Shown here piece by piece: positions 3,821 through 58,346 of a DNA stretch of 64,000 nt. The DNA is from Nanobdellota archaeon (lineage in GTDB: Archaea; Aenigmatarchaeota; Aenigmatarchaeia; Aenigmatarchaeales; Aenigmatarchaeaceae): assembly GCA_018901755.1 (NCBI GenBank), contig JAHIDZ010000015.1:65079-129078 (forward strand), in the 5' to 3' direction. Made by a program: the position numbers and the translations under genes. The notes beneath the pieces are model-generated. The model saw nothing but the letters and a program-made list of their open reading frames with translations, did no database searches and was not told where the DNA came from. Positions within the stretch are counted from its first letter, which is position 1. Each line of letters begins with the position of its first letter.

Positions 3821-4450
3821 ATGAAATGTGAGATAGATGTTAGGAGAGAAGACGATATCGGTTATACACTAGGTGTTATTGCTGGTGATGGGTTTATTGG
3901 AAAGAATACAGAAACGACAAGAATGATTATGCTATCTGTAAAAGATAAAGAATTTTGTGATAATTTTTCAAATAGTTTGTTTAATATATGCGGCCGAAAA
4001 TATAAGGTTAGTAGGGTTAATAATTATAGATATAGACAAGGTTATTGCTGGGTAACAAGATGTTGTATTCGACAAGTAGTTAACTTTTTTGAAAATTATG
4101 ATATTTATCAATTATCAGAAAATACAGATAAGATCAAGCTAGGTTTCTTAAGAGGTATGTTTGATGCAGAAGGTTGTAGCTTTTGTAAGCTTTATCCTAA
4201 AAGAGGAGGTTATTCAAGAACGGTTGCTGTTTTTAATAAAAATAAAAAATTACTTAATCTGTGTCAAGAATTATTGAATTCTTTCGAAATAAAAACAAGA
4301 AAATTTTCTAAAGATAAGGATGGTGTATATGCACTTCACCTGAGTCTTTCAAAAGAAAATCTAACGAAATTTAGGGATTTGATAAATTTTTCAATCCCGC
4401 GCAAAATTTCAAACTTGGAAACATGCTTAGAGAGTTATACGGGTGGTTAA
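3821..4450 (+). CDS. free-standing LAGLIDADG homing endonuclease-like protein
   Basis: Two LAGLIDADG motifs (LGVIAGDGFIG and LRGMFDAEGCS). The ATG abuts the S28e stop and the 3' end overlaps the L24e start. Confidence 0.8.
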   Translation: MKCEIDVRREDDIGYTLGVIAGDGFIGKNTETTRMIMLSVKDKEFCDNFSNSLFNICGRKYKVSRVNNYRYRQGYCWVTRCCIRQVVNFFENYDIYQLSENTDKIKLGFLRGMFDAEGCSFCKLYPKRGGYSRTVAVFNKNKKLLNLCQELLNSFEIKTRKFSKDKDGVYALHLSLSKENLTKFRDLINFSIPRKISNLETCLESYTGG

Positions 4451-8421: not shown

Positions 8422-9975
8422 TTATCTATATTCTTCTTCTACCCATTCTTTAGCTTTACCTTTTTTATGGGCGCTAGTTCCAAAGAAACCAAAATCTTCT
8501 TCATGTACAGTGAGTAGACCTTTTAATGGGTCGAGCATATGTTGCCGTATTGTTAATTCTTGACGTTTTATTTCAGGACCAAATTCTTTAAGTCCAAAGA
8601 ATTCCAACGGTAGATCTTTTGGAGGAACATTTTTTTCTAGAAACATTGCAATTAATTTTATAGATAAAACACTATCTTGAATTCCTTCTTCACCAGATCT
8701 TTCAAATATAAGCCATGCGTCTTTAAAGCCCTTTTCTCTTAATTCCCAAAGTCTTTCATAGATATACACTTGTGCATCAGATGCTCTTGGGATTCCGAGA
8801 TGTGCTGGGGCATAAGGAACAGGTGCTCCTAAGTGAACTACTTTTACTCGATTTCCTCCTTTCATAGGAAATTTGTTTATCGTCTCTTTTGGATCAATTT
8901 TACTTCCAAGCATATGTTCGAAATCTATAGCAACACCGACCCAATCAGAACCAATGCATTCTGCCAAATAATAAATGTGTAATGGATTTGAAAATCTCAT
9001 ATTTAATTCATGTCCTGGTGATGCCATTGGAGTTTCCATTACAAAATACATTTTACTTTTTTCAAGTTCTTTTTTAAGATTTTGTTCTTTGTATTCGGGT
9101 AATGATGTATTAAAATGTCCCCAGATGTATTTTCCCGCAACTGCAGAAACCCATAATTCTGGTTTTGCAATAAGGTCTGCATCTGATAAATCTTTTCCAA
9201 CAATATTTTTCCATAGGACATCATAACTATTCATCATATACTTTGCAATGATATAATAGGCAAGTCTTTCTGGTCCATATTCACTTTCCTGCGAATTGAA
9301 AAAATCAAATAATTGTCCATCTGCCTCTTCCTTCGAATCCTTCCGCATTTTATCAGCTTCTTCTTTTGGTGGCTGTTTACCTTCATGGGAATAATAATAA
9401 CTTTCAATTTTTTTCTCGAAATAACGATTTTCACCAACTATATATCTTCTCAGCTGTGCAGGCATGTCTTCTCGGTTGATAAATTTCCAGAACCAATCAA
9501 GCAATTTTGGGTTTTCTTCAAATAATTTTCTTAACGGTCTTCCATTAAAATCAACCAAGTCAACTGGTTTAAGATCGTGCCACAATGTAACAAATGGTTC
9601 AGATTCAGAAGAATGTACAAGCATATATTTTGCGCCAAGTTCTCCACTATGTTTTAAATGCAAATAAAGTCTTTCATGAGATAATTTATATTGATCTCGA
9701 TAAGGAGAATCTAAAAACAGAGTAGTTCTTCCGATTGCTTCACATTCGCCATGAATTCCGAATTCAAATCCTTCTTTAATAACTTTTTTCATTGCATCTT
9801 TCAAGCCAGGCTGTCCAAATTCTGTAATTGTTTCTATATCAACTTGTGTAAATTTGGTACCAAATCTAGAAGAATTATAAATCTTTTGATGTATACCTGC
9901 AACAAATTCTGCGCCAGAGCCTTTCTGAGATGCAATTTTAAAATATCCACTGGATATGCCAACAGTATAAGCCAT
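8422..9975 (-). CDS. hypothetical protein (517 aa), possibly a xylose-isomerase-like TIM-barrel fold
   Basis: Long coding ORF with a GISSGYF N-terminus and HLG/FEH motifs. The fold assignment is a weak guess. Confidence 0.55.
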   Translation of the reverse strand: MAYTVGISSGYFKIASQKGSGAEFVAGIHQKIYNSSRFGTKFTQVDIETITEFGQPGLKDAMKKVIKEGFEFGIHGECEAIGRTTLFLDSPYRDQYKLSHERLYLHLKHSGELGAKYMLVHSSESEPFVTLWHDLKPVDLVDFNGRPLRKLFEENPKLLDWFWKFINREDMPAQLRRYIVGENRYFEKKIESYYYSHEGKQPPKEEADKMRKDSKEEADGQLFDFFNSQESEYGPERLAYYIIAKYMMNSYDVLWKNIVGKDLSDADLIAKPELWVSAVAGKYIWGHFNTSLPEYKEQNLKKELEKSKMYFVMETPMASPGHELNMRFSNPLHIYYLAECIGSDWVGVAIDFEHMLGSKIDPKETINKFPMKGGNRVKVVHLGAPVPYAPAHLGIPRASDAQVYIYERLWELREKGFKDAWLIFERSGEEGIQDSVLSIKLIAMFLEKNVPPKDLPLEFFGLKEFGPEIKRQELTIRQHMLDPLKGLLTVHEEDFGFFGTSAHKKGKAKEWVEEEYR

Positions 9976-11667
9976 TTATCCAACACCCATTTTACCTTTT
10001 AAGAATTTGTTAATCATATTAAATTCTCCACCAATAACATTAAGATAATATTTTGTTATTCTATCAGCATAATCTGTTTCATATTGGCCAGGCTTTGAAA
10101 ACATTATACCTTCCATTTTAGGCATTTTCATAGCAGATGATGATCTGCTTATACCACTAAACATAACACGCAACTCTTTCATAAATTTGTCAAGCGCGTT
10201 TTCTTCTTCACCCTTTTTACCAAATAGGAGAGGAAACTCCTTTTTAACAACATCCATTATATCTTCTTGTCCTAGTTTTAATCCTATTATTTCATCAATA
10301 TATCTTTCAAATTCCATTTCTCGACATTTTAATTCAAGCAATTTTACAAGCATTATGTTTTGCGATATTGCATATGCATATACACTAAATGTGATATCTT
10401 CGATTTCACCGATTGTTAATCTTGAGCCTGATCTGAATACATCTATGATGAAAAATGAATAGTATAATTCTGATGGATTTAGTGCAAATCTTTTAGCTTT
10501 CCAATCTGGTAGGATTTGCTCTTCAACAACTTCATCTGCAACTGTTCTTTTTTCTACTGGTCTTTTACATTTCGGACATAGATCTGTTTTTGAAGCATAA
10601 TATTTTTTACAATCACTGCAATAAAATCTTTCATTTGCCAACCACGGATATTCTTTAGCAAGTCCTTTTTTTGGATCTAGTATTAAATTGTCTCTAACAT
10701 AGGAATCGTAAGGATGTATAATAAAATCACCTTCTTTTATAACATCACTTTTTCTTGCTTCAGTAGGTTTCAGGTCTTTCCAGGCCCATATTGTTATATT
10801 GTTTGTATAAGTAGAAATGCCAGCTAAGTCTGAAAATGATTTGAATACATTGGCTCTACCTAGAGCAGATTCAGAACCAAGTTTTGTCATCTTATATCTA
10901 GAAATGTAAGGTTTTAACCAGATTTTATATTCTTCTATTGATTTTTTTCTAGCTGTTTCTAAACCTTTAAGGGTTTCATATCTTCGTTTTACAACGTTTA
11001 GGAATTCTCCTTTCCAGTTTACAAACATTTTATTTTTTGTAACAAGAATAGTTGACTCTGCTTTACTGACATTAAGTTTTTTAGCAACTGGATTAATTTC
11101 TAAATCAGTATCATTCATTGCTTGAAAGTCTGTAATTATTGTAGGCCATCTTTTTGGCATACTAAATAGAGAAAATCCTTCACCAGTGTGCATATCGACT
11201 TGATCAATAAACATTGATCTAAGACTATGTTCATCTTTTTCTGAGAAAAGTTTCATAATTCGTCCATATTTTCTCAAATCGTGTTCAACAAGTTCATAAT
11301 CTGCAACAGCGCTTGCAGCTGAACCAAGACCTTCTTTTATTTGAGCTTCTAATTGTCTTTTGCTAGAAACTGTTTTTTGATAATATTCTGTAAAAGTTGG
11401 AGATATTTCAATCCATTCGTCTATTTTCGAAACATTGAATTTTTCAGTTCCAAGCATGAATACTAGAGAATAATACATAGCAGATGCGATTCCAACTGGA
11501 CCAGTGAAATTAAGTTTTGTAATTTGATTACAGTTTTCTTCTTCATTAACAACTCTGTTATCTGGTCCGTTGCAAAGATAGATACCCATGGTTGGTTTAT
11601 CTGGTACATTAATAGGAATGCCCCATCCCTTTCCATTTGTGAAATCAAAAATAGGTTTATCTATCAT
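9976..11667 (-). CDS. hypothetical protein (563 aa) with an internal zinc ribbon
   Basis: CSDCKKYYASKTDLCPKCKRP zinc ribbon. The start overlaps the stop of the upstream small ORF (ATGA), and the gene abuts the downstream 517-aa gene. Confidence 0.55.
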   Translation of the reverse strand: MIDKPIFDFTNGKGWGIPINVPDKPTMGIYLCNGPDNRVVNEEENCNQITKLNFTGPVGIASAMYYSLVFMLGTEKFNVSKIDEWIEISPTFTEYYQKTVSSKRQLEAQIKEGLGSAASAVADYELVEHDLRKYGRIMKLFSEKDEHSLRSMFIDQVDMHTGEGFSLFSMPKRWPTIITDFQAMNDTDLEINPVAKKLNVSKAESTILVTKNKMFVNWKGEFLNVVKRRYETLKGLETARKKSIEEYKIWLKPYISRYKMTKLGSESALGRANVFKSFSDLAGISTYTNNITIWAWKDLKPTEARKSDVIKEGDFIIHPYDSYVRDNLILDPKKGLAKEYPWLANERFYCSDCKKYYASKTDLCPKCKRPVEKRTVADEVVEEQILPDWKAKRFALNPSELYYSFFIIDVFRSGSRLTIGEIEDITFSVYAYAISQNIMLVKLLELKCREMEFERYIDEIIGLKLGQEDIMDVVKKEFPLLFGKKGEEENALDKFMKELRVMFSGISRSSSAMKMPKMEGIMFSKPGQYETDYADRITKYYLNVIGGEFNMINKFLKGKMGVG

Positions 11668-15532: not shown

Positions 15533-16489
15533 TTATTTTATTGGTATCATTTTTGCAATATTATATGCAAGTGGCCACGGAACGGCATTTCCGATTTGTC
15601 TATATTGTGATGAAATGGATCCTTCAAAGATAAAATCATCGGGAAAATTTTGAAGTCTTGCAACTTCTCTTACAGTCATCCTTCTTTTCAGATTTGGATG
15701 CGGTATTATAACAGGCCCTCCTGTTCCGCCACCTCTACCAACTATTGTTGGAGAAGGCTCATTCCATTTTGTTGCACGGTTTCCTATATGTCCGTTTATC
15801 TTAACTTGATGTTCAGTTCCGTGATGGTTTGGTATATCTCCATCAGTTTTTTCAGGAATTCCTTTTAACCCATCTTTTACTGTTTTCCACAGTGGAAGAT
15901 TATCTTTTCCATCTTTGGAATGCGTCGGATTAGGGTGTATTATTTTTGGTTCAATATCATTTCTTGTTCCAAGTATTATGATTCTTCTTCTTGCCTGTGG
16001 AACACCATAATCCGCAGAATTAAGTATTTTAAAATTAACAGTATAGCCAATTGAAATTGCATTTTCAAGTTCCTTTAAAATAATCTTTAATACCTTTCCA
16101 GTTTTTTTAGCCCGATCTTTAGAAGTTTCATAACCTCCGGCTGAACATAATCCGACAACATTTTCAGCAACGAAATATTTCGGTTCCTTATCCCTAATAA
16201 TACGAAGAAGTTCAAGGTATAATTTATTTCTTTTGTCTTCTGTGTGTCTATATGGATTAGCGATTGAAAATCCCTGACATGGAAATCCACCAATAACTAT
16301 ATCGGCATTAGGAATTTCCAATGATGGAATCTTTTCTATATTGGTGCAAATTGGCCTATGTTTGAAGTATTTTTCATATGTTTTACATGAATCTGAATCA
16401 TTATCATTGGACCAGACTATTATGTGTCCAGCTTTAACAAATCCGAGATCCATCCCACCTGCACCACAAAATAATGATATTATTTTCAT
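15533..16489 (-). CDS. dcm: DNA (cytosine-5)-methyltransferase
   Basis: Motif I FCGAGG, motif IV GFPCQGFS, motif VI ENV (FVAENVVGL) and motif X QIGNAVP. Confidence 0.9.
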   Translation of the reverse strand: MKIISLFCGAGGMDLGFVKAGHIIVWSNDNDSDSCKTYEKYFKHRPICTNIEKIPSLEIPNADIVIGGFPCQGFSIANPYRHTEDKRNKLYLELLRIIRDKEPKYFVAENVVGLCSAGGYETSKDRAKKTGKVLKIILKELENAISIGYTVNFKILNSADYGVPQARRRIIILGTRNDIEPKIIHPNPTHSKDGKDNLPLWKTVKDGLKGIPEKTDGDIPNHHGTEHQVKINGHIGNRATKWNEPSPTIVGRGGGTGGPVIIPHPNLKRRMTVREVARLQNFPDDFIFEGSISSQYRQIGNAVPWPLAYNIAKMIPIK

Positions 16490-18599: not shown

Positions 18600-19790
18600 C
18601 CAAGCCCTTTTCGGTCCGGTAATTTCAGCAGGCTTAGAATGATAATAATTAACCGTTATGGTTTTTATATCTATCTTGCTATATAGTTTGCTATATAGTG
18701 TATTTAAATCCTTTTGGGTGCAATTATACAATATGAAAATGGTGAAACAATCATATGCACAAAACTGGTCAGCATACAACAAAGCTCAGATGAATGAGAA
18801 ACAGCTATTCATGGAACTATTATGCGATTTGTGCAACGATGCTGAAGAACCGGAGTATGTATTCGGAAGACTTAAGATACCAGTTGCTGATATTTTATTC
18901 TGCAGTGCTTTTAAGATATATTCCGGCTATTCTGGTAGAAGATTTACAACAGATATGAGAACTGCAAAGGAAGACAACTACATCAGTAAAGTTCCGCATT
19001 ATAATTCGTTGTTTAATTTTTTGAAGAATCTTAATACATCAGCTATTCTTATGAAAATGATACAGAAATCAGGGCTTTCGTTAAAAGACGTTGAAACAAA
19101 ATTTGCTATTGATGCATCTGGATTTTCAACAACGAGATACAGAAGATGGTTTGATTTCAAATACGGTCATGAAAGGGACTTCAGAATATGGGTGAAAGCA
19201 CATGTAGTTTGCGGAGTAGGAACGAACATAGTTACAGCTGTTAGGCTGTCTGAAGCGAGGGCACACGATAATAAATTTTTCAAGGAGCTTATTAATGATA
19301 CTTCATCAAATTTCAATGTCTGCGAGATGTCAGCTGACAAAGCGTATATGTCAAGAAATAATCTTGAATTGGTTGATAGCCTTGGCGGAAAAGCATACAT
19401 ACCATTCAGATCTAATGTAACAGGAAAACAAAGAGGTTCTAAGCTGTGGGGTAAAATGTATCATTATTTCAAATATAACAATGAGGATTTTATGAAACAC
19501 TACCACCTTAGATCAAACGTCGAATCAACCTTTTCAATGATTAAACGAAAATTTGGTGATACTGTTAGAAGCAAAGATAAAACAGCACAATTTAATGAGA
19601 TTCTATGCAAGATTTTATGTCATAATATTTGTGTTGTTATACATGAAATGCACGAAATGGGTTTCTATAAGAAGACGGAATGGGCAAGTTAGTATTATCA
19701 GGTAAAAATTTATTCAAAAAGAAAAAGAGTTTAAGGACGAAATCCGATTTCTCGTTAAGGACAATTGTCCGATTTCGCCCTATCTATTAT
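18600..19790 (+). mobile_element. IS4/IS5-superfamily insertion sequence (boundaries approximate)
   Basis: Single DDE transposase ORF flanked by GC-rich segments carrying GGTCC/GGAC-GAAA motifs in inverted orientation (near 18603-18626 and 19737-19780). The terminal inverted repeats are imperfect and not firmly delimited. Confidence 0.45.
18733..19692 (+). CDS. DDE transposase, IS4/IS5 family
   Basis: NWSAYNKAQ N-terminal motif, DDE residues in DASGF, SADKAY and ESTFSMIKRKFG (E-x6-K/R). The start is taken at MKMVKQ (18733) rather than at the track's 18658. Confidence 0.8.
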   Translation: MKMVKQSYAQNWSAYNKAQMNEKQLFMELLCDLCNDAEEPEYVFGRLKIPVADILFCSAFKIYSGYSGRRFTTDMRTAKEDNYISKVPHYNSLFNFLKNLNTSAILMKMIQKSGLSLKDVETKFAIDASGFSTTRYRRWFDFKYGHERDFRIWVKAHVVCGVGTNIVTAVRLSEARAHDNKFFKELINDTSSNFNVCEMSADKAYMSRNNLELVDSLGGKAYIPFRSNVTGKQRGSKLWGKMYHYFKYNNEDFMKHYHLRSNVESTFSMIKRKFGDTVRSKDKTAQFNEILCKILCHNICVVIHEMHEMGFYKKTEWAS

Positions 19791-27251: not shown

Positions 27252-27992
27252 ATGATACTTTCAATGGAAAGATTTAATGAAAAAATTATTATTGAAAATA
27301 GTATGCAGAGAAAGCTATTTCTAGAAATTAAGAAAATGGAAGGTTTGAGTCAAAGGAAGCTTGCAAAACGGTTAAAAATAAGTCGAAACAGCATTAAAAA
27401 CTGGGCAAGTGAGGATAGAAAATTACCGAAATTTATTTTCGAGGAAATATTAGAAAAGTTTCCATGGGCATCGGAATATAGAAATTATGTACATGGCACC
27501 CTTCCTAGAAACTGGGCTCAGATTAAGGGTGGTAAGATTCGAAGTAAGATGAAGAATAATTTAACAAATGATGATAGAGTAAAGGGATTTAGGCTGGGCA
27601 GATTGGGGATTAAAAGAAAAACAGTTGGGCCAAATGGCGAACTGATGTTTAATGATGGCGAAAAAAGAATTGCTGAGGAGTTGATACGAAATAAAATTAA
27701 CTATGTGTATGAGCCGGTAATTTTACTTGGAGAAAATTATGCTATCCCAGATTTCATTGTGAATAATACTGTTATCGAAAGATGTGGTTATCGCGATTGG
27801 AAGCCGTATTGGTCGAATATTAAGAGAAAGATTAAAAGATTAAAGAAATATGAAAATTATAAAATCATTATTTTAGTCCCATCAAAAAATTTTGATATGG
27901 TAGTTAAAATTTTAAAAAATGTCAGAGGCATCACTATATTGAAGGAAGAAAATTTGGAAGCACTTTTAGATATTTTGAAAATATACCATTGA
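27252..27992 (+). CDS. HTH fused to a PD-(D/E)xK (DUF559/Vsr-like) endonuclease domain; homing-endonuclease-like
   Basis: Its N-terminal HTH (LFLEIKKMEGLSQRKLAKRLKISRNSIKNWASEDRKLPKFIFEEILEKF) aligns with the N-termini of the LAGLIDADG genes in this window. The C-terminus IAEELIRNKINYVYEPVIL...IPDFIV...IERCG resembles the DUF559 nuclease core. Confidence 0.55.
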   Translation: MILSMERFNEKIIIENSMQRKLFLEIKKMEGLSQRKLAKRLKISRNSIKNWASEDRKLPKFIFEEILEKFPWASEYRNYVHGTLPRNWAQIKGGKIRSKMKNNLTNDDRVKGFRLGRLGIKRKTVGPNGELMFNDGEKRIAEELIRNKINYVYEPVILLGENYAIPDFIVNNTVIERCGYRDWKPYWSNIKRKIKRLKKYENYKIIILVPSKNFDMVVKILKNVRGITILKEENLEALLDILKIYH

Positions 27993-28063: not shown

Positions 28064-28166
28064 GGGTCCATAAGTTAAATTTTAATTTAACTGGAATGCT
28101 CAGTTTGGCTAGAGCACCTGCCTCTTAAGCAGGGGGTCGCGGGTTCAAATCCCGTTGGACCCACCA
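28064..28166 (+). tRNA. tRNA-Lys (anticodon CUU) with a 25-nt intron between positions 9 and 10; CCA encoded
   Basis: Acceptor GGGUCCA/UGGACCC, D-stem GCUC/GAGC, anticodon arm CCUGC-CUCUUAA-GCAGG and T-arm GCGGG-UUCAAAU-CCCGU. The intron at 28073..28097 (AGUUAAAUUUUAAUUUAACUGGAAU) forms an 8-bp hairpin. Confidence 0.78.
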
Positions 28167-28219
28167 ATTATTTTTGAATTATTAATATGTTTAAATATTT
28201 GACTAGTAGATAATTATTT

Positions 28220-31087
28220 ATGAAAGGCATAACACAAATTTTGATATTTGCAATATTTTTGTCTATTTTGAGTACTTCGTTTTATGCATATAATATTACA
28301 GATTCTGGTTACTATTGCCACAATTGTACAGATTGTATGGACGCTATTAACAATGTTACAATGAATGTGACATATCTTAATATGAGCATATATGTAGAAT
28401 CATCATGTGTAGATAATCCTGAAAATTTTACAAATGAAATATTCGATTGCCAAAATTATAACATAACTGGAAGCGGAACTGCTGCAATTTATTTGAATAA
28501 TAGAAATAATGTTACAGTTAGAAATTGTGATATTGCTGGTTATAATGGATATGGTATATTGTTAACATCTTCTACAGATAATACAATTCTTAATAATACA
28601 ATATGGACGCCGTCTACTATATCTATACTGCTACAAACATCAAGTGATAATAATGTAATTGCCAGCAATACATTGAGAATGCCAGACTGGTATTATAATT
28701 TATATGGTGGTTATTCGAGTCGAAATATTAAAATTACTGATTCTTCAAATAATAATATAACTGGAAATAATATTAGTCATGCATATAGAGGTCAGGGTCC
28801 ATATATTGAAATTTCTAATGCAACATATACCAACATTATCAATAATAATGTTTATGGTAGTTATTGCTCTTATCTTCCGCCAGCTCAGTTATGTGATGGT
28901 TCTGGAATATATGCAGCAGATTTTACTGATAGTGTAATAGCAAATAATACAATATCTGGTAATTTAACCGGTATTTACATTTCATCTGCTTCAGATAATA
29001 CAATTATTAATAATAGTATTAGTGGACATACCAGTGCTGCTACTTATAGTGGAATAAATTTGTATGCATCCGAAGCAAATAATGTAACTAATAATAGTAT
29101 AATAGATGCAACTTCTACATCATATGGAATTTCATTATATGCAGCTTCCAACATTAATAATATAACAGCAAATATCATATCTTCGGCTGCAAACATATAT
29201 CTTCAATTGTCTGATGAAAATATTATCAATGATAATACAATTTACAATGGTGTAAGAGGATTTTTAACCTATATGGCAAATTATAATAATTTTACAAACA
29301 ATATAGTAACAGGCTCAACACTTACTAACATATATCTTTTGGCATCATCATATAATAATTTTACATATAATACTATGACAAATACGAAATATGGTATTCA
29401 GATAGAAGATGATCCTGGTGATTGGTCAATATCACCTATACCAGAGTATTTTGATAATTATATAGATACTACAAATACGATAGGTGGAAAAACAGTTTAT
29501 TATTATCGTAATCAATATAATACAACATTGAGTCCGTCTAGTCCAGGATTTTTAGGATGTTTTAATTGCACAAATGTTACAATACGAGATACATCTATTT
29601 CAGAAAATGGACAGGGAATATTGCTTGCAAGTACAAATGATTCTCTTATTACAAATTGTACAATTGGCTCAAATTATATGGGATTTTATTTTGATACGGC
29701 AACTTATAACAATAATGTTACCAATTCTCTAATTTACGGAAACGATTATTTAACAGTTGTTGATTTGGGGGTAAATAATATTTTCGGAAATGATAATATT
29801 TATTTATATGATATGATTGTTCCAGTATCAAATACATGGTATACAAGTTTTGATGAAATGTCATTTAAAATATCAAATTTGACCTATGCTAATATGATAT
29901 GTAGTCAATATATTAATAATACTCTTACAAAAACAAATACATCTGTTAAAGATAATCAGAAAACAAACTTTACATATACTGCATCGGAAGGACCACATTC
30001 TTATTATTTTTATTGTAATGATACTAACGGAACCGATATGTTTGACTTTTCAACAGCAGCAATAACATATGGATTGAAGTATTCTAATAATATAGCAGGA
30101 TGCACGCTAGGAACACATTGTAAATCTGGTTTTTGTGTACATAACATATGTCGAGCAGCAGCAACATATTGTGGAGATGGATATTGTGATGCTGGGGAAG
30201 GGGCATGTACAGTTGATTGTGGTTCTGGCGGTAGCACCGGGGGAAGCTTACCAATATCATCTGTAATAACACCAATAGTATCAACACTCCCACCGTCAAT
30301 AACATTCCCAAATACTGTATTCAATAATGCGAACGGATTGTTAATAATACCTGAAGATGGAGCAGTTATGTCATTGTCAATCGATGGAAAGTATATAATA
30401 GATCCAAGTGGGTATCCGATATCTTTTGTATTATTTGGTAGTGCAGGAACAGCAAATGTAATTAAAACTGTTGAAATAACACCAGACCAATTCAAAGAAA
30501 CAAAATGTTACCAAGAAACTTTAGCATCATATGTTTTAGAAATAGAAGGTGAAAATAAATATTTATGTTTAAACATAGAAGATTATAGTAAAGAAAATGT
30601 AATAGATATCAAAACATACAAATTTGTAGATGATGATTGGCAAGAGATATCATATCAAGATTATAATGGAAAATTATGCTCACCAATAACTTCAACACCA
30701 TACATGATTGCGGGGTTCAAATCTAGCTCAACGCAGCAAGAAGCTCTTACTAAAATATTAATGGCTGAAAGTACATTAGAAGTTGCATCTGAGAGTGGGC
30801 AAGATACCGAATATGCAGAACAATTAATTACTGAAGCTAATGTCGCATATTGGTCTTGTCAATATGCTAGTGCATCAGATTTAGCTATACGTGCCGTACA
30901 AAGTGTAAAGACGATAGAATTACCACTTTATATGATTTTATCAGGAGTTGCTATTATTTTAGCTGGAATTTTATACTTATTTAGAAACAAATTAAATTTC
31001 ATTAAATTTCCAAAGAAGGAAATAACTTCAATAAATGAAACAACTGTATCAGAGATATCAAAAAAGAAATTAAAGAAACAAAAATAA
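28220..31087 (+). CDS. cell-surface protein: signal peptide, parallel beta-helix repeats, Cys-rich stalk and C-terminal TM anchor; likely heavily N-glycosylated (S-layer or adhesin candidate)
   Basis: N-terminal hydrophobic signal (ILIFAIFLSILSTSF). Dozens of NxS/T sequons within N-N-T-I/N-N-S-I beta-helix repeats. Cys-rich segment CTLGTHCKSGFCVHNICRAAATYCGDGYCDAGEGACTVDC. C-terminal TM helix LPLYMILSGVAIILAGILYLF followed by a basic tail. Confidence 0.75.
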   Translation: MKGITQILIFAIFLSILSTSFYAYNITDSGYYCHNCTDCMDAINNVTMNVTYLNMSIYVESSCVDNPENFTNEIFDCQNYNITGSGTAAIYLNNRNNVTVRNCDIAGYNGYGILLTSSTDNTILNNTIWTPSTISILLQTSSDNNVIASNTLRMPDWYYNLYGGYSSRNIKITDSSNNNITGNNISHAYRGQGPYIEISNATYTNIINNNVYGSYCSYLPPAQLCDGSGIYAADFTDSVIANNTISGNLTGIYISSASDNTIINNSISGHTSAATYSGINLYASEANNVTNNSIIDATSTSYGISLYAASNINNITANIISSAANIYLQLSDENIINDNTIYNGVRGFLTYMANYNNFTNNIVTGSTLTNIYLLASSYNNFTYNTMTNTKYGIQIEDDPGDWSISPIPEYFDNYIDTTNTIGGKTVYYYRNQYNTTLSPSSPGFLGCFNCTNVTIRDTSISENGQGILLASTNDSLITNCTIGSNYMGFYFDTATYNNNVTNSLIYGNDYLTVVDLGVNNIFGNDNIYLYDMIVPVSNTWYTSFDEMSFKISNLTYANMICSQYINNTLTKTNTSVKDNQKTNFTYTASEGPHSYYFYCNDTNGTDMFDFSTAAITYGLKYSNNIAGCTLGTHCKSGFCVHNICRAAATYCGDGYCDAGEGACTVDCGSGGSTGGSLPISSVITPIVSTLPPSITFPNTVFNNANGLLIIPEDGAVMSLSIDGKYIIDPSGYPISFVLFGSAGTANVIKTVEITPDQFKETKCYQETLASYVLEIEGENKYLCLNIEDYSKENVIDIKTYKFVDDDWQEISYQDYNGKLCSPITSTPYMIAGFKSSSTQQEALTKILMAESTLEVASESGQDTEYAEQLITEANVAYWSCQYASASDLAIRAVQSVKTIELPLYMILSGVAIILAGILYLFRNKLNFIKFPKKEITSINETTVSEISKKKLKKQK

Positions 31088-31121: not shown

Positions 31122-31373
31122 ATGAAGAAAATAGTCGCGATGAGTCTTTTAATATTATCTATAATGATTGGTTCTATTTTTGTCATTGCAGGCACCGTGT
31201 CTGATACTGAATTTTTTATTTGGGTTGGAATGGTTATAATTGCAATTGGTGTGATAAATCTATTGTTAAAAATGATAATAATTGAACCAAAATATCAACC
31301 AAACATTGTAACTGTACGAAAAAATGTAAGAAAAACAGTTAAAAAGAAGCTAAAAAAGAAGGCTAAACGGTAA
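31122..31373 (+). CDS. small membrane protein with a Lys-rich tail
   Basis: Two hydrophobic segments followed by KKKLKKKAKR. Confidence 0.4.
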   Translation: MKKIVAMSLLILSIMIGSIFVIAGTVSDTEFFIWVGMVIIAIGVINLLLKMIIIEPKYQPNIVTVRKNVRKTVKKKLKKKAKR

Positions 31374-43740: not shown

Positions 43741-43860
43741 TGGTGCGGGAGGCAGGATTTGAACCTGCGAATGAACTAATCAACTGGGTCCTAAGCTTCG
43801 CTCAAGAATAAACGTATTTAATCTTGTCCAGCGCCTTAGACCTAGCTTGGCAACTCCCGC
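43741..43860 (-). tRNA. tRNA-Leu (anticodon UAG) with a 31-nt intron at the anticodon-stem position 30/31 (or 31/32); CCA encoded
   Basis: Minus-strand read GCGGGAG-UU-GCC...GGC-G-CUGG[ACAAGAUUAAAUACGUUUAUUCUUGAGCGAA]G-CUUAGGA-CCCAG-UUGAUUAGUUCAUUC(variable arm)-GCAGG-UUCAAAU-CCUGC-CUCCCGC-A-CCA. Removing the intron gives a perfect CUGGG/CCCAG anticodon stem with G37. The D-arm and long variable arm match archaeal tRNA-Leu. Confidence 0.7.
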
Positions 43861-44480: not shown

Positions 44481-45224
44481 ATGAATAACATTGATAAAAA
44501 TAAGGTATTACGTCTGTATAAAGATGGGTATACATTAGCACAGATTTCTATAAACACTGGACTAAGTAAAACTACAATTTATTATCATACGCGGAAGCAA
44601 TTTGGGAGAAAATATAAGCTCATAACGATTTCAGATAACAGAGAGAAAATTGGTGAATTCATTGGTGTTTTTACAGGAGACGGGTATTTCATTAAGGATA
44701 AGATAGGACATTACAAAACAATGATAACTGTTTCGATTAAAGCATCTGAATACATAAAGCACTTAGATACGATTTTTACAGAACTGTTTTCTAAATCCCC
44801 ACTTATTATCAAAAGACTTAAATATAATACAGTCGAACTTCGATACGATTCTAAAGAAATATACGAATTGATAAAAAACTATTTGTTTTGGGATGGAAAG
44901 AAACATAACTCAGTTAGACTGCTGGTAATTGAGCACGATAAGGAATTTCTTACAGGATTCTTAAGAGGTTGCCTAGATACAGATGGTCATGTTCATAAGA
45001 ATTATAAAAGAATATGCTTTTCTACCACATCTCTATTTTTGGCGAACCAGCTTTCTTCTATTTTAACTAATCTTGGTTTTGAGAACAAAATTCTAATAGC
45101 AAGAGATAAGAGATTGAATAGAAAATTGTTATATAATGTAAGATTGTTGGGAGAAGAAGCTATTAGATTGATTAAAACAATTAAACCAGGAAATCCTTCA
45201 AAGAGAAGAGATTGGTGCGAGTGA
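44481..45224 (+). CDS. HTH fused to a LAGLIDADG homing endonuclease-like domain
   Basis: N-terminal HTH (YKDGYTLAQISINTGLSKTTIYYHTRKQ). LAGLIDADG motifs IGVFTGDGYF and LRGCLDTDGHV. The last 9 nt overlap the acceptor stem of tRNA-Gly on the opposite strand. Confidence 0.8.
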   Translation: MNNIDKNKVLRLYKDGYTLAQISINTGLSKTTIYYHTRKQFGRKYKLITISDNREKIGEFIGVFTGDGYFIKDKIGHYKTMITVSIKASEYIKHLDTIFTELFSKSPLIIKRLKYNTVELRYDSKEIYELIKNYLFWDGKKHNSVRLLVIEHDKEFLTGFLRGCLDTDGHVHKNYKRICFSTTSLFLANQLSSILTNLGFENKILIARDKRLNRKLLYNVRLLGEEAIRLIKTIKPGNPSKRRDWCE

Positions 45225-45303
45225 GGGGATTTGAACCCCTGTTGTAAACTTTTTGCGAAATTCTTGGCAAGCTTACGTACTGGCCAGACTATACGACACT
45301 CGC
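45213..45303 (-). tRNA. tRNA with a 14-nt intron at the canonical 37/38 position, most likely tRNA-Gly (anticodon GCC); CCA encoded
   Basis: Minus-strand read GCGAGUG-UC-GUAU-AGUCUGGCCA-GUAC-G-UAAGC-UUGCCA[AGAAUUUCGCAAAA]A-GUUUA-CAAC-AGGGG-UUCAAAU-CCCCU-CACUCGC-A-CCA. UUGC of the loop can pair with GCAA in the intron, giving a BHB-like helix flanked by 3-nt bulges. Confidence 0.62.
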
Positions 45304-54942: not shown

Positions 54943-55304
54943 AGGGTCAATTTTTTATAATATCAACAGTAATAATGATTTCTGCACTTATTTTGATAAT
55001 GAATTATCTTTATGATTATGGTAAAGTTGATTTAAGCAACGTCGAAAAGATGCAGGAATTAAATTATATCGGTGATGTGAAAAATAGTTTAATGCAAACA
55101 TTGCAAATATCATGTGCTAATTCTCAGAATCCAGAAATGAATCTTGTTCTTTCGGAGAAGAATCTTAAAGAAAGATTATTAGAACGTGGTATAGTTCTTG
55201 AAGTGGCTCATACTAATGTAGGATGCAACCCAGAACCAGTAGGAGATATTACTTTTAAGATTAAATCAAATACTTTTTCTATAGAAAATAGTTTTTCAGT
55301 CTAA
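54939..55304 (+). CDS. small secreted/membrane protein with a possible class III (type IV pilin-like) signal peptide
   Basis: MKG|QFFIISTVIMISALILIM: a short basic leader, Gly, then Gln followed by a hydrophobic helix. Confidence 0.35.
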   Translation: MKGQFFIISTVIMISALILIMNYLYDYGKVDLSNVEKMQELNYIGDVKNSLMQTLQISCANSQNPEMNLVLSEKNLKERLLERGIVLEVAHTNVGCNPEPVGDITFKIKSNTFSIENSFSV

Positions 55305-56384
55305 GCCCGTTATTATTTTAAGATATGGCAGTTGAGTTTTTATGCACCTTTTTGAGCAATGCAACTCTTGCGCTAATTTACCATGTGTTTCATTATTTTC
55401 AGCTCTATCTTCTTTGCTTTTACCGAGTATCATGATTTTTTCTGGAGGCTTATATGGTGTGTATGAATTGTCTTTTCTTATTAGTGTCATAGATACCATC
55501 ATGTTTTTCATATATAATAACATTCTGTAGTTTTTTCCAACATAAACTTTTTCTCTAAACATATCTGCTTTACTAAGTATATCAAATGCGAATGCAATTT
55601 CTTCAGGTTTTTTATATTCGTTTGTAATATTTTGTTCCATCCACCAAAAGATTTCTTCAATATCTTTATCACAAGAATCAATTGCTTTTGAGGCATCATT
55701 GAGACTATTAGATTTGAATATTATTCTAATAGCTTCGAAAATGTTTATACCTCTTTCTCTGAATCCAATTATTTCAGTATGTGTTACTTTTTTTCTATTA
55801 GTTATTATTATTTGTAGATCATTTATTGCAGATCTTAAATCTCCGCCAGAACTTTCTGCTATTCTTACAATTATATCATTGTCTACTTCTACACCTTCTT
55901 TAGCACATATTTCTCTTAGTTTTTTACCAATTGATAATGTTCCAATTCTTCTAAATTGAATTAATGTGCAGTAGCCTCTTAATGTTCTGAGACCTTTATC
56001 ATATGCATCGTTAGCAGTAAGTATTACAGGAAATTTGCTGGTTTTAATAAGATTTATTATTTCAGTAACAGTTCCTTTGTCAGTATAATTATCAATTTCA
56101 TCTACAACTATTATTCTTTTTGCACCAAGCAGAGACATCATTGTTGAAGATGATTTTATTTTTTTTACTTCTTCTATTTCAGATGCGTGAACTTCGGTTA
56201 TATTTATTTTATTATCAATTGATATTACCTGTGATATAATTGTTTTTCCAATACCAGGTGCACCATAAAGAAGAATCGCTTTTCCAGTTTTGAATGTTTT
56301 AATATATTCTACAATATTTGCCAAAGCTGTAGAATTTCCAACAATGTCTGATACTTTTTTTGGTTTATATCTGTTTACTAACAT
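55296..56384 (-). CDS. rfcL: replication factor C large subunit
   Basis: NRYKPKKVSDIVGN, Walker A GAPGIGKT, Walker B VVDEID and SRC-like region. The start overlaps the stop of the upstream LAGLIDADG gene by 7 nt. Confidence 0.8.
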   Translation of the reverse strand: MLVNRYKPKKVSDIVGNSTALANIVEYIKTFKTGKAILLYGAPGIGKTIISQVISIDNKINITEVHASEIEEVKKIKSSSTMMSLLGAKRIIVVDEIDNYTDKGTVTEIINLIKTSKFPVILTANDAYDKGLRTLRGYCTLIQFRRIGTLSIGKKLREICAKEGVEVDNDIIVRIAESSGGDLRSAINDLQIIITNRKKVTHTEIIGFRERGINIFEAIRIIFKSNSLNDASKAIDSCDKDIEEIFWWMEQNITNEYKKPEEIAFAFDILSKADMFREKVYVGKNYRMLLYMKNMMVSMTLIRKDNSYTPYKPPEKIMILGKSKEDRAENNETHGKLAQELHCSKRCIKTQLPYLKIITGLD

Positions 56385-57373
56385 CGTGATACCCCTACTA
56401 TTGCTCTCATATTATTTGCTCTTTTAATACGGTTTGGATGTTGCAATGGCGTATTGTTTAAAAATGTAGGAATAGAATCAACCTTTAAAGAAAAATCGTA
56501 TGTGATACCAAATTCCTTTACCCTTGTAGATATCTTTCCAGATTGCATATTCAAGCGTTCGGTAAATAATTTTAATTCTTCTAGAAACATTCTGTCTGCT
56601 TGGGCGAATATAATTTTTTTATCGGGTTCATATATACAACCATCGGCATCGAAAAACCCTGCGATAAAGGCATTTTTGATTTCTTTTGAACCATTATATA
56701 TAATATCCGGTATTTTTAGTTGTCCTTTCTTTTTACCCATTGGTATACCGCATATTTTATTAAGAAAAATAAACAACACCTTAGACTGTATGTAAATTTC
56801 AAAGCATTTGGAATTTGTTTTATATATATTAGCTTTCAAATCAAATTGATTATTGATAAATTTGTTGAATTTATTAGCAAATTTTACCGTGTCTGAAGCT
56901 ATTTCAATCATGTATTTGAAATTTCCAGTTCTCATTTTTGGTTTCCATATATCTACAAGACAACCATCACCTATGATATAACCGATAATGTATGACAGTT
57001 CTTCTGTAATTTCTTTTGGAAGTTTTACTATTTTACCCTTAGCCACAGAAAAATACTCATTTTCTTTGAATGCAGATTCAATTATTTTGTTTTTTTCATC
57101 TTCTGATTTTCTGCAAACTCCTTTCCAAATATTTATTAGTTGAAAGAATTTCGATATGGGTATTGGTGAAGTTCCGTTAATCCAATTTGAAACTGTTCTC
57201 CTCGGAACGCCAAAAGACATCGTTGTAAGTTTAATAATTCCCTTCCCATGCTCCTTCTTTATTTCAGAATATAAATTTTTAGTTATGTTACTTATATCAC
57301 ACATTCTAATTTCATCATTTCTATCGTAATTAGACAAAACCATAAAATAGTTTGGGATTTTAATAATTATCAC
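56378..57373 (-). CDS. HTH fused to a LAGLIDADG homing endonuclease-like domain; GTG start
   Basis: N-terminal HTH-like region (GVPRRTVSNWINGTSPIPISKFFQLI). LAGLIDADG motifs IIGYIIGDGCLV and FIAGFFDADGCIY. It sits between rfcS and rfcL. Confidence 0.8.
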   Translation of the reverse strand: MIIIKIPNYFMVLSNYDRNDEIRMCDISNITKNLYSEIKKEHGKGIIKLTTMSFGVPRRTVSNWINGTSPIPISKFFQLINIWKGVCRKSEDEKNKIIESAFKENEYFSVAKGKIVKLPKEITEELSYIIGYIIGDGCLVDIWKPKMRTGNFKYMIEIASDTVKFANKFNKFINNQFDLKANIYKTNSKCFEIYIQSKVLFIFLNKICGIPMGKKKGQLKIPDIIYNGSKEIKNAFIAGFFDADGCIYEPDKKIIFAQADRMFLEELKLFTERLNMQSGKISTRVKEFGITYDFSLKVDSIPTFLNNTPLQHPNRIKRANNMRAIVGVSRC

Positions 57374-57377
57374 CTAG

Positions 57378-58346
57378 TTATTCCTTTCTGAACAGTGCAA
57401 ATTGTGCAAGCAAACTTTCCAACTGTATTTGTTCATTACCACCTTGGTTGATTCTGAATTCAAATTCTCCAACCTTTTCAATAAGATTTACTTTTTCTTT
57501 TTCTGTTAAATCGATACTGTATATTTGCTGCATTATCTGTTTTATTATATCTTGCCCACAAATTCCATCTTTTAAAATCATATTATTTAAAATTTTTCTT
57601 GCTTCTAAGAAATTTCCTTTTAATGAAATTTCAAGCATATTTTTTACTTCTTTTGGCTCTGCGATTGAAGCTACATCATATATGGCTTTCTCGGTGATAT
57701 TTTTAGTATTAATTGCGGCAGTTTGAAGAATGTTTATTGCTTTTCTAATATCACCTTCAGATAATTTGCATATTGCATCTATTGCATCTGAATCTGCACT
57801 TACCTTTTCCATTCCGATTATCAGATCGAGCCGTTTCTTTATACTTTCATCTGAAATTGTTTTAAATCTAAAAACACAGCATCTAGACTGCAATGGTTCT
57901 ATTATTTTTGAAGAATAATTGCATGATAGGAAGAATCTGCACGAATTACTATAGCTTTCCATTGTTCTTCTTAGTGCATTTTGCGCGTCAGCTGTTAGTG
58001 CATCTGCTTCATCTAGAAATATTATTTTATACGGTATGTTTCCGACAGATTTTGTTCTTGCGAAATCTTTTACTTTTGATCTAATTACGTTAATTCCTCT
58101 TTCATCTGAAGAATTAAGTTCAAGGAAGTTCTGTCTCCAGTTGCTTCCAAATAGCTTTTTTGCTATTATTATTGATATTGTTGATTTACCACACCCGGCA
58201 GGTCCTGCGAACATTAGATGTGGGATTTGTCGAGAATCAACAAAAGCTGAGATTCTTTCAATTATGTTTTCTTGCCCAACAACATCTGAAAATTCAGTTG
58301 GTCTGTACTTTTCGGTCCATATTTGATATTCAGTCATAGTAATCAT
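57378..58346 (-). CDS. rfcS: replication factor C small subunit, no intein
   Basis: WTEKYRP, Walker A GPAGCGKST, DEAD-like FLDEADALT, and SRC motif (SRC in LQSRCCVFRF). Confidence 0.92.
   Translation of the reverse strand: MITMTEYQIWTEKYRPTEFSDVVGQENIIERISAFVDSRQIPHLMFAGPAGCGKSTISIIIAKKLFGSNWRQNFLELNSSDERGINVIRSKVKDFARTKSVGNIPYKIIFLDEADALTADAQNALRRTMESYSNSCRFFLSCNYSSKIIEPLQSRCCVFRFKTISDESIKKRLDLIIGMEKVSADSDAIDAICKLSEGDIRKAINILQTAAINTKNITEKAIYDVASIAEPKEVKNMLEISLKGNFLEARKILNNMILKDGICGQDIIKQIMQQIYSIDLTEKEKVNLIEKVGEFEFRINQGGNEQIQLESLLAQFALFRKE

Follow-up and report, generated by a model that had tools for sequence, protein, structure and literature searches.

What kind of protein is encoded by the long, sequon-rich gene that adjoins the RNA polymerase genes in the archaeal DNA analysed here, and what does its product do at the cell surface? 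The original prediction expected an S-layer or host-attachment protein. To answer the question, the gene, its homologues and the 64-kb stretch of DNA around it (the window) were examined. The encoded protein is very probably an exported, membrane-anchored beta-helix surface protein.

Genomic context

The open reading frame call placed 955 codons and a stop, with an ATG start, at positions 28220..31087 of the forward strand. The predicted 955-aa frame is a real gene: the orthologues P0001, P0002 and P0003, with 100%, 48% and 37% identity to the query, share the same start, and M1 and K2 are invariant in their alignment. An antisense frame of 161 aa (30010-30495) was put down to the long sense frame opposite it. 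P0001, a partial protein identical to the query, is labelled 'Nanoarchaeota archaeon'. Together with the archaeal gene set of the window (31% GC), which includes the RNA polymerase operon, MCM, S8e and a CCA-adding enzyme, this label supports the view that the host is a small archaeon, here a small-genome DPANN lineage.

The gene is surrounded by a tRNA, an HTH gene, a small ORF with transmembrane segments and rpoH/B/A, the latter directly downstream of the surface-protein gene. Between the 3' end of the tRNA-Lys (28166) and the ATG lies the element TTTAAATA, which suggests that the gene may have its own promoter and a near-leaderless mRNA. The 83-aa neighbour matched no Pfam family and shares 47% identity with the ORF at the same position in a related MAG (L003), where surface gene, small ORF, rpoH and rpoB are in synteny with the window. 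An origin from a prophage or island, prompted by the adjoining tRNA, was rejected because of this synteny; the GC content of the gene is only slightly under the window mean. In the genome of P0003, the gene is placed after a ribosomal-protein/SecY cluster, a neighbourhood that differs from those of the query and L003.

Table 1 Features of the surface-protein gene and its flanks (positions in the window)
Feature	Position	Strand	Basis or remark
TTTAAATA, archaeal TATA-box-like element	28191..28198	+	read from sequence; ~22 nt upstream of ATG
Putative Sec-type signal peptide (aa 1 to ~23)	28220..28288	+	MK, hydrophobic core, S-F-Y-A; hydropathy and model
N-terminal beta-helix cap (aa 24-72)	28289..28435	+	invariant columns of orthologue alignment
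Right-handed parallel beta-helix (aa 73-510), ~16-17 PbH1 coils	28436..29749	+	Pfam, TIGR03804, AF2, Foldseek
Conserved beta-rich region, fold unassigned (aa 511-625)	29750..30094	+	conserved in three orthologues; pLDDT <50
Cys knot (aa 626-668)	30095..30223	+	all 8 Cys unchanged across orthologues
Flexible Gly/Ser/Pro linker (aa 669-698)	30224..30313	+	pLDDT <50
Membrane-proximal beta-sandwich (aa 699-835)	30314..30724	+	invariant C763, C783, W807, C820, S-T-P-Y-M-I-A-G-F strand
Three-helix bundle (aa 836-897)	30725..30910	+	invariant C880
Single transmembrane helix (aa 903-925)	30926..30994	+	hydropathy peak 2.38; modelled as helix
Lys-rich, probably cytoplasmic tail (aa 926-955) and stop	30995..31087	+	read from sequence
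Conserved neighbour, 83-aa ORF	31122..31373	+	co-directional, 35 nt downstream; two predicted TM segments, basic tail

Domain architecture of the predicted protein

From the N-terminus, the chain comprises a leader, a Cys-stapled cap, the beta-helix, a beta-rich region, an 8-Cys knot, a linker, a beta-sandwich, a three-helix bundle, the transmembrane helix and a basic tail (Table 1). The leader is hydrophobic (Kyte-Doolittle >1.6 for windows starting at aa 1-8) and was modelled as a helix over aa 2-19 (AF2); the N-termini of the orthologues are likewise hydrophobic and lead into a conserved Y-N-[IV]-T. Hydropathy and model bear out a hydrophobic leader, and the signal peptide of the original prediction stands as a putative feature. 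A class III (type IV pilin-like) signal peptide was considered for K2-G3-I4 of the query, which resembles the [KR]-[GA] cleavage motif, and discarded; these residues are absent from P0002, P0003, P0020 and P0048.

The cap behind the leader had been overlooked in the earlier description and was recognised in the orthologue alignment and the AF2 model. Six Cys are invariant, four in the cap itself (33, 36, 39, 63) and two in the first coils (77, 103). It matched no Pfam or NCBIfam family when scanned as an isolated region and is also present in the DPANN beta-helix proteins P0008, P0020 and P0048.

The assignment of the following domain to the PbH1 proteins was judged by three-stranded coils of ~22-24 residues stacked as a long helix. 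Such stacked coils were seen in the AF2 model, with pLDDT mostly >90 over aa 73-510, and the family scores exceeded the curated cut-offs: Beta_helix (PF13229) matched at E 2.7e-26 with 105.3 bits (cut-off 23.6), NosD (PF05048) at E 3.9e-30 with 92.5 bits (cut-off 25.9), and the NCBIfam repeat TIGR03804 matched seven times with 60.8 bits (cut-off 19.45). Foldseek returned 77 PDB beta-helix matches at E <= 1e-3, among them tailspikes, lyases, epimerases, PfbA and NosD, with 10-14% identity and low TM-scores; a PDB sequence search with the whole protein gave no match. The predicted beta-helix therefore stands, but not its length of about 650 aa, as the confident span is ~440 aa (aa ~73-510) with 16-17 coils. 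Inside the helix, a conserved insertion reads IDTTNTIGGKTVYYY...PGFLGCFNCTNVTIRD at aa 415-457. The conserved region of aa 511-625 is separate from the beta-helix and poorly modelled (AF2 pLDDT <50), and no Pfam or NCBIfam family matched it in an isolated-region scan.

A Cys-rich module follows, as had been described; the claimed density of about 12 Cys in 60 aa gave way to 8 Cys in 40 aa (positions 628, 634, 639, 644, 651, 656, 663 and 667), and no 60-aa window holds more than 8. The pattern is C-x5-C-x4-C-x4-C-x6-C-x4-C-x6-C-x3-C, with the motif YCGDGYCD-GE. This knot had no Pfam or NCBIfam match. It is 50-63% identical in many DPANN genomes, bears a distant likeness to sequences in Myxococcota and occurs as tandem copies in other proteins. 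The Gly-Ser linker was found as expected (CGSGGSTGGS at aa 667-676); other family members carry a Pro/Glu-rich spacer at this position.

The second beta-rich domain of the original prediction was recovered at aa ~700-834 in the C-terminal model, which reached pLDDT 85-97 over aa 699-924. Between this domain and the membrane, the model revealed a three-helix bundle (aa 837-896, pLDDT >90) that had been missed. The single C-terminal transmembrane helix (aa ~903-925) and its Lys tail were confirmed; the 34 residues of the latter include 10 Lys and 1 Arg. Each of the 26 aligned modules has a basic tail. In the query, basic residues follow the transmembrane helix and all 25 Cys fall on the predicted outside; by the positive-inside rule, the tail should reside in the cytoplasm. 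Sorting by a PGF-CTERM/archaeosortase system was dismissed: the sequence before the helix (...KTIELPLYMILSG) has no P-G-F, and no NCBIfam sorting signal matched.

A portable C-terminal anchor module

In an exhaustive search of representative clusters, the module formed by beta-sandwich, helix bundle, transmembrane helix and tail was found at the C-terminus of ~40 protein clusters, ranging from ~200 to >5,700 aa and carrying differing passengers. These are beta-helices, Ig-like or unassigned regions and Cys repeats, and the Cys knot usually precedes the module. A word-index search with a 26-sequence module profile gave four matches, and a degenerate DNA pattern for TPYMIAGF retrieved nine true loci among 22 matches in metagenomes. 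In these sequences, the module is a portable unit that is always C-terminal and combined with varied passengers. It was absent from the viral contigs searched, so a viral or tailspike origin finds no support.

Neither Pfam nor NCBIfam contained a family for the module when the query and eight other module-bearing proteins were scanned; scans of sub-regions yielded only sub-threshold noise (S-antigen, 20 bits; DUF7044, 16 bits), and the module profile matched no PDB sequence. The tail module is conserved yet has no match in Pfam, in NCBIfam or among PDB sequences. One could speculate that the last ~260 residues are an undescribed archaeal juxtamembrane 'pedestal' which defines a class of surface proteins, including giants of >5,000 aa, and which, beyond tethering, links its passengers with the S-layer or with one another or serves as a site of autoproteolysis and shedding. 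The idea of autoproteolysis or regulated shedding derives from the weak likeness to ZU5, GAIN and SEA-type juxtamembrane domains, and we regard the proposal as a whole as doubtful.

Sequons and N-glycosylation

The query contains 33 N-x-S/T sequons, 32 of which lie within aa 25-603 on the predicted outside. Composition shuffles gave an expectation of 22 +/- 3.9 (z ~2.7), and the density of 34.6 per 1000 aa is 6.7 times the 5.2 of the other 60 ORFs in the window. The prediction that almost every coil carries a sequon held by our own count, with at least one in ~13 of ~16 coils. These numbers have to be read against the family, whose median density is 32.6 per 1000 aa; of 120 homologues, 47 exceed the query. 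The PbH1 consensus, with NN[VIF]T and xNN[TS]I, itself generates some of the sequons, and their high number mostly reflects the repeat family rather than this gene in particular. Within the 64-kb window, neither AglB (STT3 match, WWDYG motif) nor a glycosyltransferase gene was present. We consider it fairly likely that the protein is N-glycosylated.

Evolution and family relationships

Cap, last coils, knot and anchor are conserved among the orthologues, and the central coils vary in number and sequence. With lengths of 955, 1340 and 887 aa, the coil number varies freely, which suits a rod of variable length better than it suits a fixed catalytic groove. The query shares 48% identity with its orthologue, while RpoB shares 84%; such fast divergence would be typical of exposed surface proteins.

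A family search retrieved 264 matches, all with PF13229 and PF05048. Such proteins are annotated as 'parallel beta-helix repeat protein' in Nanoarchaeota, Aenigmatarchaeota, Pacearchaeota, Altiarchaeales, Thermoplasmata and Methanosarcinales. The protein is an ordinary member of this very large known archaeal family.

Proposed role and alternative readings

The domain order is best explained by a binding protein that is exported via Sec, anchored in type I orientation, probably N-glycosylated and projecting from the membrane, a reading to which we assign a probability of about 0.55. The leader would direct Sec export and then be cleaved, and the basic tail would stay in the cytoplasm. On the outer face of the membrane, beta-sandwich and helix bundle would form a rigid pedestal, probably braced by C763-C783 and C820-C880 disulfides, a pairing that we infer. 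Linker and Cys knot would hold the beta-helix outwards as a stiff rod of an estimated ~8 nm, given ~17 coils at ~4.8 A each, and its ~30 exposed sequons would be glycosylated by AglB. The rod would most likely bind glycans or proteins on other cells or on substrates, and be neither an enzyme nor a lattice subunit. Binding or adhesion as the primary role is a tentative assignment that we place a little short of even odds; within it, host attachment is plausible and would accord with proposals made for comparable Nanobdella proteins.

A surface-anchored polysaccharide-degrading enzyme, such as a pectin-lyase-like lyase, hydrolase or epimerase acting on glycans of a host envelope or of the environment, would agree with the best fold matches, namely the glycan-cleaving HK620 tailspike, the fucoidan lyase FdlA, PL6 alginate lyases, AlgE epimerases and polygalacturonases. 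The beta-helix is, moreover, a fold on which many glycan lyases and hydrolases are built. Some family members match Pectate_lyase_3, and a glycan-degrading role was proposed for beta-helix proteins of Nanobdella (bioRxiv 10.1101/2023.10.27.564410). The query, however, matched at E <= 1 only NosD and Beta_helix and no catalytic family (PF00295, PF00544, PF12708), and the fold matches share the low identity and TM-scores given above. Furthermore, the central coils, where the active-site groove is usually located, vary among the orthologues, and charged residues are few (11 Arg and 6 His in 955 aa). Altogether, we regard an enzymatic function as unlikely.

The S-layer role named in the original prediction, either as an S-layer protein or as a major associated or anchoring subunit comparable to SlaB, was not supported by the comparison. 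Its putative signal peptide, many sequons and C-terminal membrane anchor would all suit such a protein. So would the constitutively expressed neighbourhoods, directly in front of the RNA polymerase operon in the window and L003 and behind the ribosomal-protein/SecY cluster in the P0003 genome, and the literature knows beta-helix S-layer proteins in bacteria. Yet no S-layer family (e.g. MSTP/S-layer PF07752 or Ig-like SLPs) matched at E <= 1 in Pfam, and no PDB sequence matched. For DPANN, the predicted S-layer proteins are of the MSTP-like beta-sandwich or Ig-like type; a published structure-prediction survey reported MSTP-like beta-sandwich S-layer proteins in Nanoarchaeota, Aenigmatarchaeota and other DPANN. 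A coil number that differs among close relatives is hard to square with a fixed lattice, and the third orthologue has a different gene neighbourhood. Finally, the anchor module is common to dozens of proteins with unrelated passengers, including giants of >5,700 aa, which points to a generic tether rather than a lattice element. An S-layer lattice role is unlikely, and the S-layer reading as a whole has only a slim chance of being right.

NosD, which handles copper in the periplasm as a partner of the NosFY ABC transporter while nitrous-oxide reductase matures, is suggested by the PF05048 score and by 7osf among the fold matches, and nosD in 11 DPANN genomes was read as an accessory denitrification role (He et al. 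2021), but this identity is effectively refuted and has a negligible probability: the match is confined to the generic PbH1 repeat, TIGR04247 scored 58.4 bits against a cut-off of 300 (NCBIfam), a Pfam scan of 36 window ORFs revealed no nosZ, nosF, nosY or nosL, and Cys knot, extra beta-sandwich, helix bundle and membrane anchor of the query are missing from NosD.

The findings bear on how such genes are annotated and used. 'NosD' annotations in DPANN genomes denote surface beta-helix proteins like this one and are not to be taken for a denitrification capacity. DPANN depend on cell contact, surface proteins are obvious candidates for mediating it, and the gene offers one dissected example. 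The anchor module may serve as a sequence handle to retrieve membrane-tethered surface proteins from the genomes that encode it and to select targets for localisation and binding studies.

Comparison with known systems

The closest relatives are the archaeal PbH1 or 'NosD-domain' proteins, to which the beta-helix is homologous. They have the same cap, the IDT-NT-GK-YYY insertion, NNT-rich coils and a similar sequon density, whereas the full architecture was found, among database proteins, only in P0001-P0003 and the combination with the C-terminal module in a small subset. NosD of NosDFY(L) (PDB 7osf) is also a right-handed beta-helix with PbH1 repeats, but it is a soluble periplasmic protein that docks on an ABC transporter; the query is membrane-anchored and has four extra modules.

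In its second half (YCGDGYCD-GE-x4-C-x2-DC), the knot resembles the CGDG-C-GE units of the Myxococcus-type cysteine-rich CGDG repeats (TIGR02232), and tblastn with the knot gave weak matches in two Myxococcota genomes (L032, L033). The archaeal knot differs by an additional 4-Cys half (C-x5-C-x4-CVH-x2-C), and NCBIfam gave no match. The beta-sandwich of the anchor module may have a weak likeness to ZU5 domains of ankyrin (4d8o/3f59) and of the FIIND of NLRP1/CARD8 (7crw/7crv), at 7-11% identity and with none at E <= 1e-3. These domains, however, are eukaryotic and cytoplasmic, and the [HS]-F-S cleavage motif of ZU5/FIIND is absent from the query, in which the conserved strand is S/x-T-P-Y-M-I-A-G-F.

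By description, the protein resembles MJ1_0451, MJ1_0701 and MJ1_0776 of the cultivated Nanobdella aerobiophila, pectin-lyase-like proteins for which a function at the interface of symbiont and host was suggested (Kato et al., bioRxiv 10.1101/2023.10.27.564410). These DPANN proteins likewise combine a parallel beta-helix with 908-1320 aa and 36-52 sequons; they differ in having 1-8 Ig-like folds and in being candidate glycan degraders, and no Cys knot or ZU5-like/three-helix pedestal was described for them. At the fold level, the receptor-binding tailspike of phage HK620 (6g0x) and the surface adhesin PfbA of Streptococcus pneumoniae (4mr0) are comparable as elongated beta-helices that engage surface glycans or proteins. 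With 10-14% identity they have no detectable sequence homology to the query, and they are anchored via a phage tail and LPXTG, respectively, whereas the archaeal protein would be held by its C-terminal transmembrane helix.

Architecture of the beta-helix protein

The beta-helix gene is a single ORF, and the ATG start given by the ORF listing is backed by the invariant residues M1 and K2 in an alignment with the two full-length orthologues. The encoded protein has an extreme composition (N 110, I 100, T 98, S 98 and Y 73, with only 11 R and 6 H), and hydropathy analysis revealed exactly two strongly hydrophobic segments, one at the N-terminus and one at aa ~896-923. Pfam assigned the protein to NosD (3.9e-30) and Beta_helix (2.7e-26), and NCBIfam detected seven parallel beta-helix repeats (TIGR03804). 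Domain boundaries were drawn from AF2 models and alignments and yielded the domain order listed in the table. All 25 cysteines lie on the predicted outside, and helix 3 of the bundle is separated from the TM helix by ~6 residues only. The antisense ORF inside the gene very probably arises as a by-product of the long coding frame on the sense strand.

The original prediction was borne out for the ORF and the overall layout, including the Gly-Ser linker, in which Pro also occurs, and the C-terminal TM helix with its lysine tail, but some details had been over-counted or were incomplete. The beta-helix had been put at ~650 aa, while its confident part in the AF2 model spans aa ~73-510 only. Instead of ~12 Cys in 60 aa, the Cys-rich segment has 8 within 40 aa (628-667), which is also the most that any 60-aa window contains. 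The second beta domain and the TM helix are both present, but the three-helix bundle between them had been missed.

Features of the beta-helix protein, the surrounding window and related loci
Feature	Position	Description
Beta-helix gene	28220..31087 (+)	955 aa
Leader	aa 1 to ~23	Hydrophobic; helix 2-19 in AF2 model
Cap	aa 24-72	Cys 33, 36, 39 and 63 invariant; Cys 77 and 103 fall in the first coils
Beta-helix	aa 73-510	pLDDT mostly >90; holds the widely conserved insertion IDTTNTIGGKTVYYY...PGFLGCFNCTNVTIRD
Beta-rich region	aa 511-625	Conserved, poorly modelled
Cys knot	aa 626-668	8 Cys, C-x5-C-x4-C-x4-C-x6-C-x4-C-x6-C-x3-C
Linker	aa 669-698	Gly/Ser/Pro
Beta-sandwich	aa 699-835	pLDDT 85-97 with deeper alignment
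Three-helix bundle	aa 837-896	pLDDT >90
TM helix	aa 903-925	
Tail	aa 926-955	Lys-rich
Antisense ORF	30010-30495 (-)	161 aa, TTG start, wholly within the beta-helix gene
Small TM ORF	31122-31373 (+)	83 aa, two hydrophobic segments, Lys/Arg-rich tail
HTH gene	27252-27992 (+)	HTH_3/HTH_19 domain, just upstream of the beta-helix gene
LAGLIDADG-type ORFs	3821-4450 (+); 56378-57373 (-); 63404-64000 (+)	Free-standing, homing-endonuclease-like; the last runs off the window end
RFC-like AAA+ genes	55296-56384; 57378-58346	
C-5 cytosine DNA methylase	15533-16489 (-)	
DDE_Tnp_1 transposase	18658-19692 (+)	
Adjacent large ORFs	9976-11667 (-); 8422-9975 (-)	563 and 517 aa
tRNA-Lys(CUU), probable	28064-28166 (+)	Non-canonical 25-nt intron between acceptor stem and D-arm (around positions 8/9)
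tRNA match	43744-43860 (-)	117 nt, over-long; full-length Rfam match
tRNA-Trp	45213-45303 (-)	91 nt, over-long
P0003 gene	L001 10001-12664 / L006	Orthologue in a Nanoarchaeota MAG
Metagenome module gene	L042 8208-11399 (-)	Contig Ga0315289_10013556

Sequon load

The protein carries 33 N-x-S/T sequons (32 between aa 25 and 603 and a single one in the cytoplasmic tail, with aa 604-938 free of them) versus 22 +/- 3.9 in shuffles of the same composition. Its 34.6 sequons per 1000 aa compare with a mean of 5.2 across the 60 remaining window ORFs; the load is genuine and far above the genome background. Almost every coil had been said to bear a sequon, which agrees with at least one in 13 of ~16 coils, counted by hand from the AF2 secondary structure. 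Because homologues have a median density of 32.6 per 1000 aa, with 47 of 120 denser than the query, and sequons fall at two recurrent repeat positions (NN[VIF]T, where a short strand starts, and xNN[TS]I, within a two-residue turn), the load is a trait of the family's repeat consensus and no peculiarity of this gene. It may have been selected as such.

Relatives of the beta-helix

A word-index search with the protein returned 264 homologues, all with PF13229 and PF05048 and mostly from Nanoarchaeota, Aenigmatarchaeota, Pacearchaeota, Altiarchaeales, Bathyarchaeota, Thermoplasmata and Methanosarcinales. Among these, the full architecture was common only to the orthologues P0001 (identical, partial), P0002 (48%, 1340 aa) and P0003 (37%, 887 aa). 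Cap, last coils, mid region, knot and C-terminal module are conserved in the orthologue alignment, and the central coils vary in number and sequence. Since the beta-helix proteins of the window and the P0002 MAG are 48% identical versus 84% for RpoB and 74% for RpoH, the protein evolves far more quickly than the core, a behaviour typical of exposed surface proteins.

The best PDB fold matches were generic right-handed beta-helices with 10-14% identity, namely HK620 and other tailspikes, fucoidan lyase, PL6 alginate lyases, AlgE epimerases, polygalacturonases, the PfbA adhesin and NosD; a sequence search of the PDB gave no match. All defining features tested were found, and the protein is a member of the PbH1/'NosD-domain' superfamily. 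A NosD function is effectively excluded by the TIGR04247 score of 58 bits versus a cut-off of 300, a different architecture and the lack of nos genes among the 36 ORFs of the window scanned with Pfam. This exclusion matters, as an accessory part in denitrification has been deduced from 'nosD' in 11 DPANN genomes (PMC7906910). Proteins such as the one described here are a likely source of such DPANN 'nosD' calls. The protein was also compared with the motifs for PGF-CTERM sorting, class III signal peptides and ZU5 autoproteolysis and conforms to none of them; a class III-like K2-G3-I4 in the query is not conserved in the orthologues.

The C-terminal module

The C-terminal pedestal module is the most unusual part of the protein, and its dissection is what this analysis adds. 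With aa 615-955 as query, an exhaustive HMMER search of 1.84 billion representatives gave 213 matches in two classes. The Cys knot alone turned up in many proteins, frequently as tandem copies; its identity is 50-63% in many DPANN genomes of GTDB, and Myxococcota show weak similarity. The second class comprises ~40 representatives that match beta-sandwich, helices and TM helix, always ending at most 64 residues from the C-terminus of entries of 113 to 5,782 aa, some of them fragments. The anchor is portable: its passengers are NosD/beta-helix regions (P0024, P0125, P0134, P0137, P0151, P0158), unknown or Ig-like regions (P0122, P0129, P0130, P0136) or CGDG Cys repeats only (P0127, P0128).

In a 26-sequence alignment, residues C763, C783, W807, C820, P827, Y828, G832, A842 and C880 are invariant and the strand S-T-P-Y-M-I-A-G-F nearly so. 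Neither the query module nor that of eight other members was matched by a Pfam or NCBIfam model, and a profile search of PDB sequences found no match. A word-index search with the C-terminal query returned nothing, and a repeat with a 26-sequence profile gave four matches only. The ~91-aa tandem repeats of P0153 (2,414 aa, representative library; ~21 copies) each match only the first part of the query beta-sandwich (module positions 25-79, ~aa 714-768), which suggests that this sub-segment is also a stand-alone repeat unit.

A degenerate DNA pattern for TPYMIAGF uncovered nine further module-bearing genes in metagenomes, one of them a truncated ORF of >3,329 aa. Modules on four contigs of one sample were 47-56% mutually identical and represent paralogues or related populations. 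The L042 gene encodes the beta-sandwich through TPYMIAGF, a Pro/Ala-rich spacer and a TM helix without the three-helix bundle. On these contigs, which have ~50% GC, the module neighbours archaeal genes (Taw1-type wyosine enzyme, V4R/MetOD1). The module is therefore archaeal, though not strictly confined to DPANN. It was absent from the viral contigs searched and present once in the window. A few dozen clusters of archaeal surface proteins, among them giant ones, share the module, which appears unannotated in the libraries searched. That it serves in docking or cleavage beyond mere tethering seems improbable.

Host and gene neighbourhood

The window has 29-35% GC throughout and encodes the archaeal RpoH, RpoB, split RpoA'/A'', a NusA-like KH protein, MCM, S8e, TFB, RFC and a CCA-adding enzyme. 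A 729-aa partial protein with 100% identity to the beta-helix protein is labelled 'MAG: right-handed parallel beta-helix repeat-containing protein, partial [Nanoarchaeota archaeon]', and on this ground the host is assigned to the DPANN archaea. The gene is preceded by a tRNA gene and, 22 nt ahead of the ATG, by a TATA-like TTTAAATA box, the putative promoter. The small TM ORF, without a Pfam family match, follows after 35 nt and precedes rpoH and rpoB; this order recurs in the MAG contig JAQUSH010000026.1 (L003), where the small ORF is 47% identical. The P0003 gene occupies another housekeeping neighbourhood, co-directional after a ribosomal-protein/SecY/adk/EMC3-like/L34e cluster and before cbf5.

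The probable upstream tRNA-Lys gene has a genomically encoded CCA end, and its intron contains a palindromic hairpin, AGTTAAAT-TTT-AATTTAACT. The Rfam match was limited to model positions 10-63 and ARAGORN missed the gene; after in silico deletion of 28073-28097 it called tRNA-Lys(ctt). The 117-nt match was also missed by default ARAGORN and, with introns allowed, was called with uncertainty as tRNA-Pro with a 33-nt intron. Both this gene and the tRNA-Trp gene probably contain introns.

One LAGLIDADG-type ORF sits between the two RFC-like genes. The ORF at the window end combines an N-terminal HTH-like region with a GIMLGDGSI motif, and the HTH gene upstream of the beta-helix gene has a similar '...W.Q.KGG...' segment. 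The methylase and transposase genes lie in an otherwise housekeeping region. For the 563- and 517-aa ORFs, Pfam gave no significant family, only a weak zinc-ribbon and a sub-threshold AP_endonuc_2 match.

Proposed role and comparison with known systems

Cysteines and sequons lie on one side of the TM helix, and the basic residues are segregated on the opposite side. The protein would be exported in a Sec-dependent manner with cleavage of its leader, and the positive-inside rule predicts a type I topology. Putative disulfides C763-C783 inside the sandwich and C820-C880, stapling the bundle to the sandwich, would create a rigid pedestal directly on the membrane. Linker and knot may serve as spacer for the beta-helix, a presumably stiff projecting rod of ~8 nm (~17 coils x ~4.8 A per coil). 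The predicted sequon sites may be glycosylated by AglB; neither AglB nor a glycosyltransferase gene was found in the 64-kb window.

A binding or adhesive role is tentatively favoured, with a probability of about 0.4-0.5, over an enzymatic one, because the number of central coils varies among the orthologues, no catalytic family matches the protein and charged residues are scarce. An enzymatic role seems unlikely. The architecture had also been thought to fit an S-layer protein. This reading is weakened by a structure-prediction survey which assigned MSTP-like beta-sandwich S-layer proteins to Nanoarchaeota, Aenigmatarchaeota and other DPANN (bioRxiv 10.1101/2024.05.28.596244), and a lattice-forming role is very unlikely.

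The beta-helix protein is an unremarkable representative of a very large class of archaeal surface proteins that had been recognised before. Biologically, its nearest counterparts are the pectin-lyase-like proteins of Nanobdella aerobiophila, which comprise 908-1320 aa with 36-52 sequons and for which an action on the host envelope was proposed (bioRxiv 10.1101/2023.10.27.564410).
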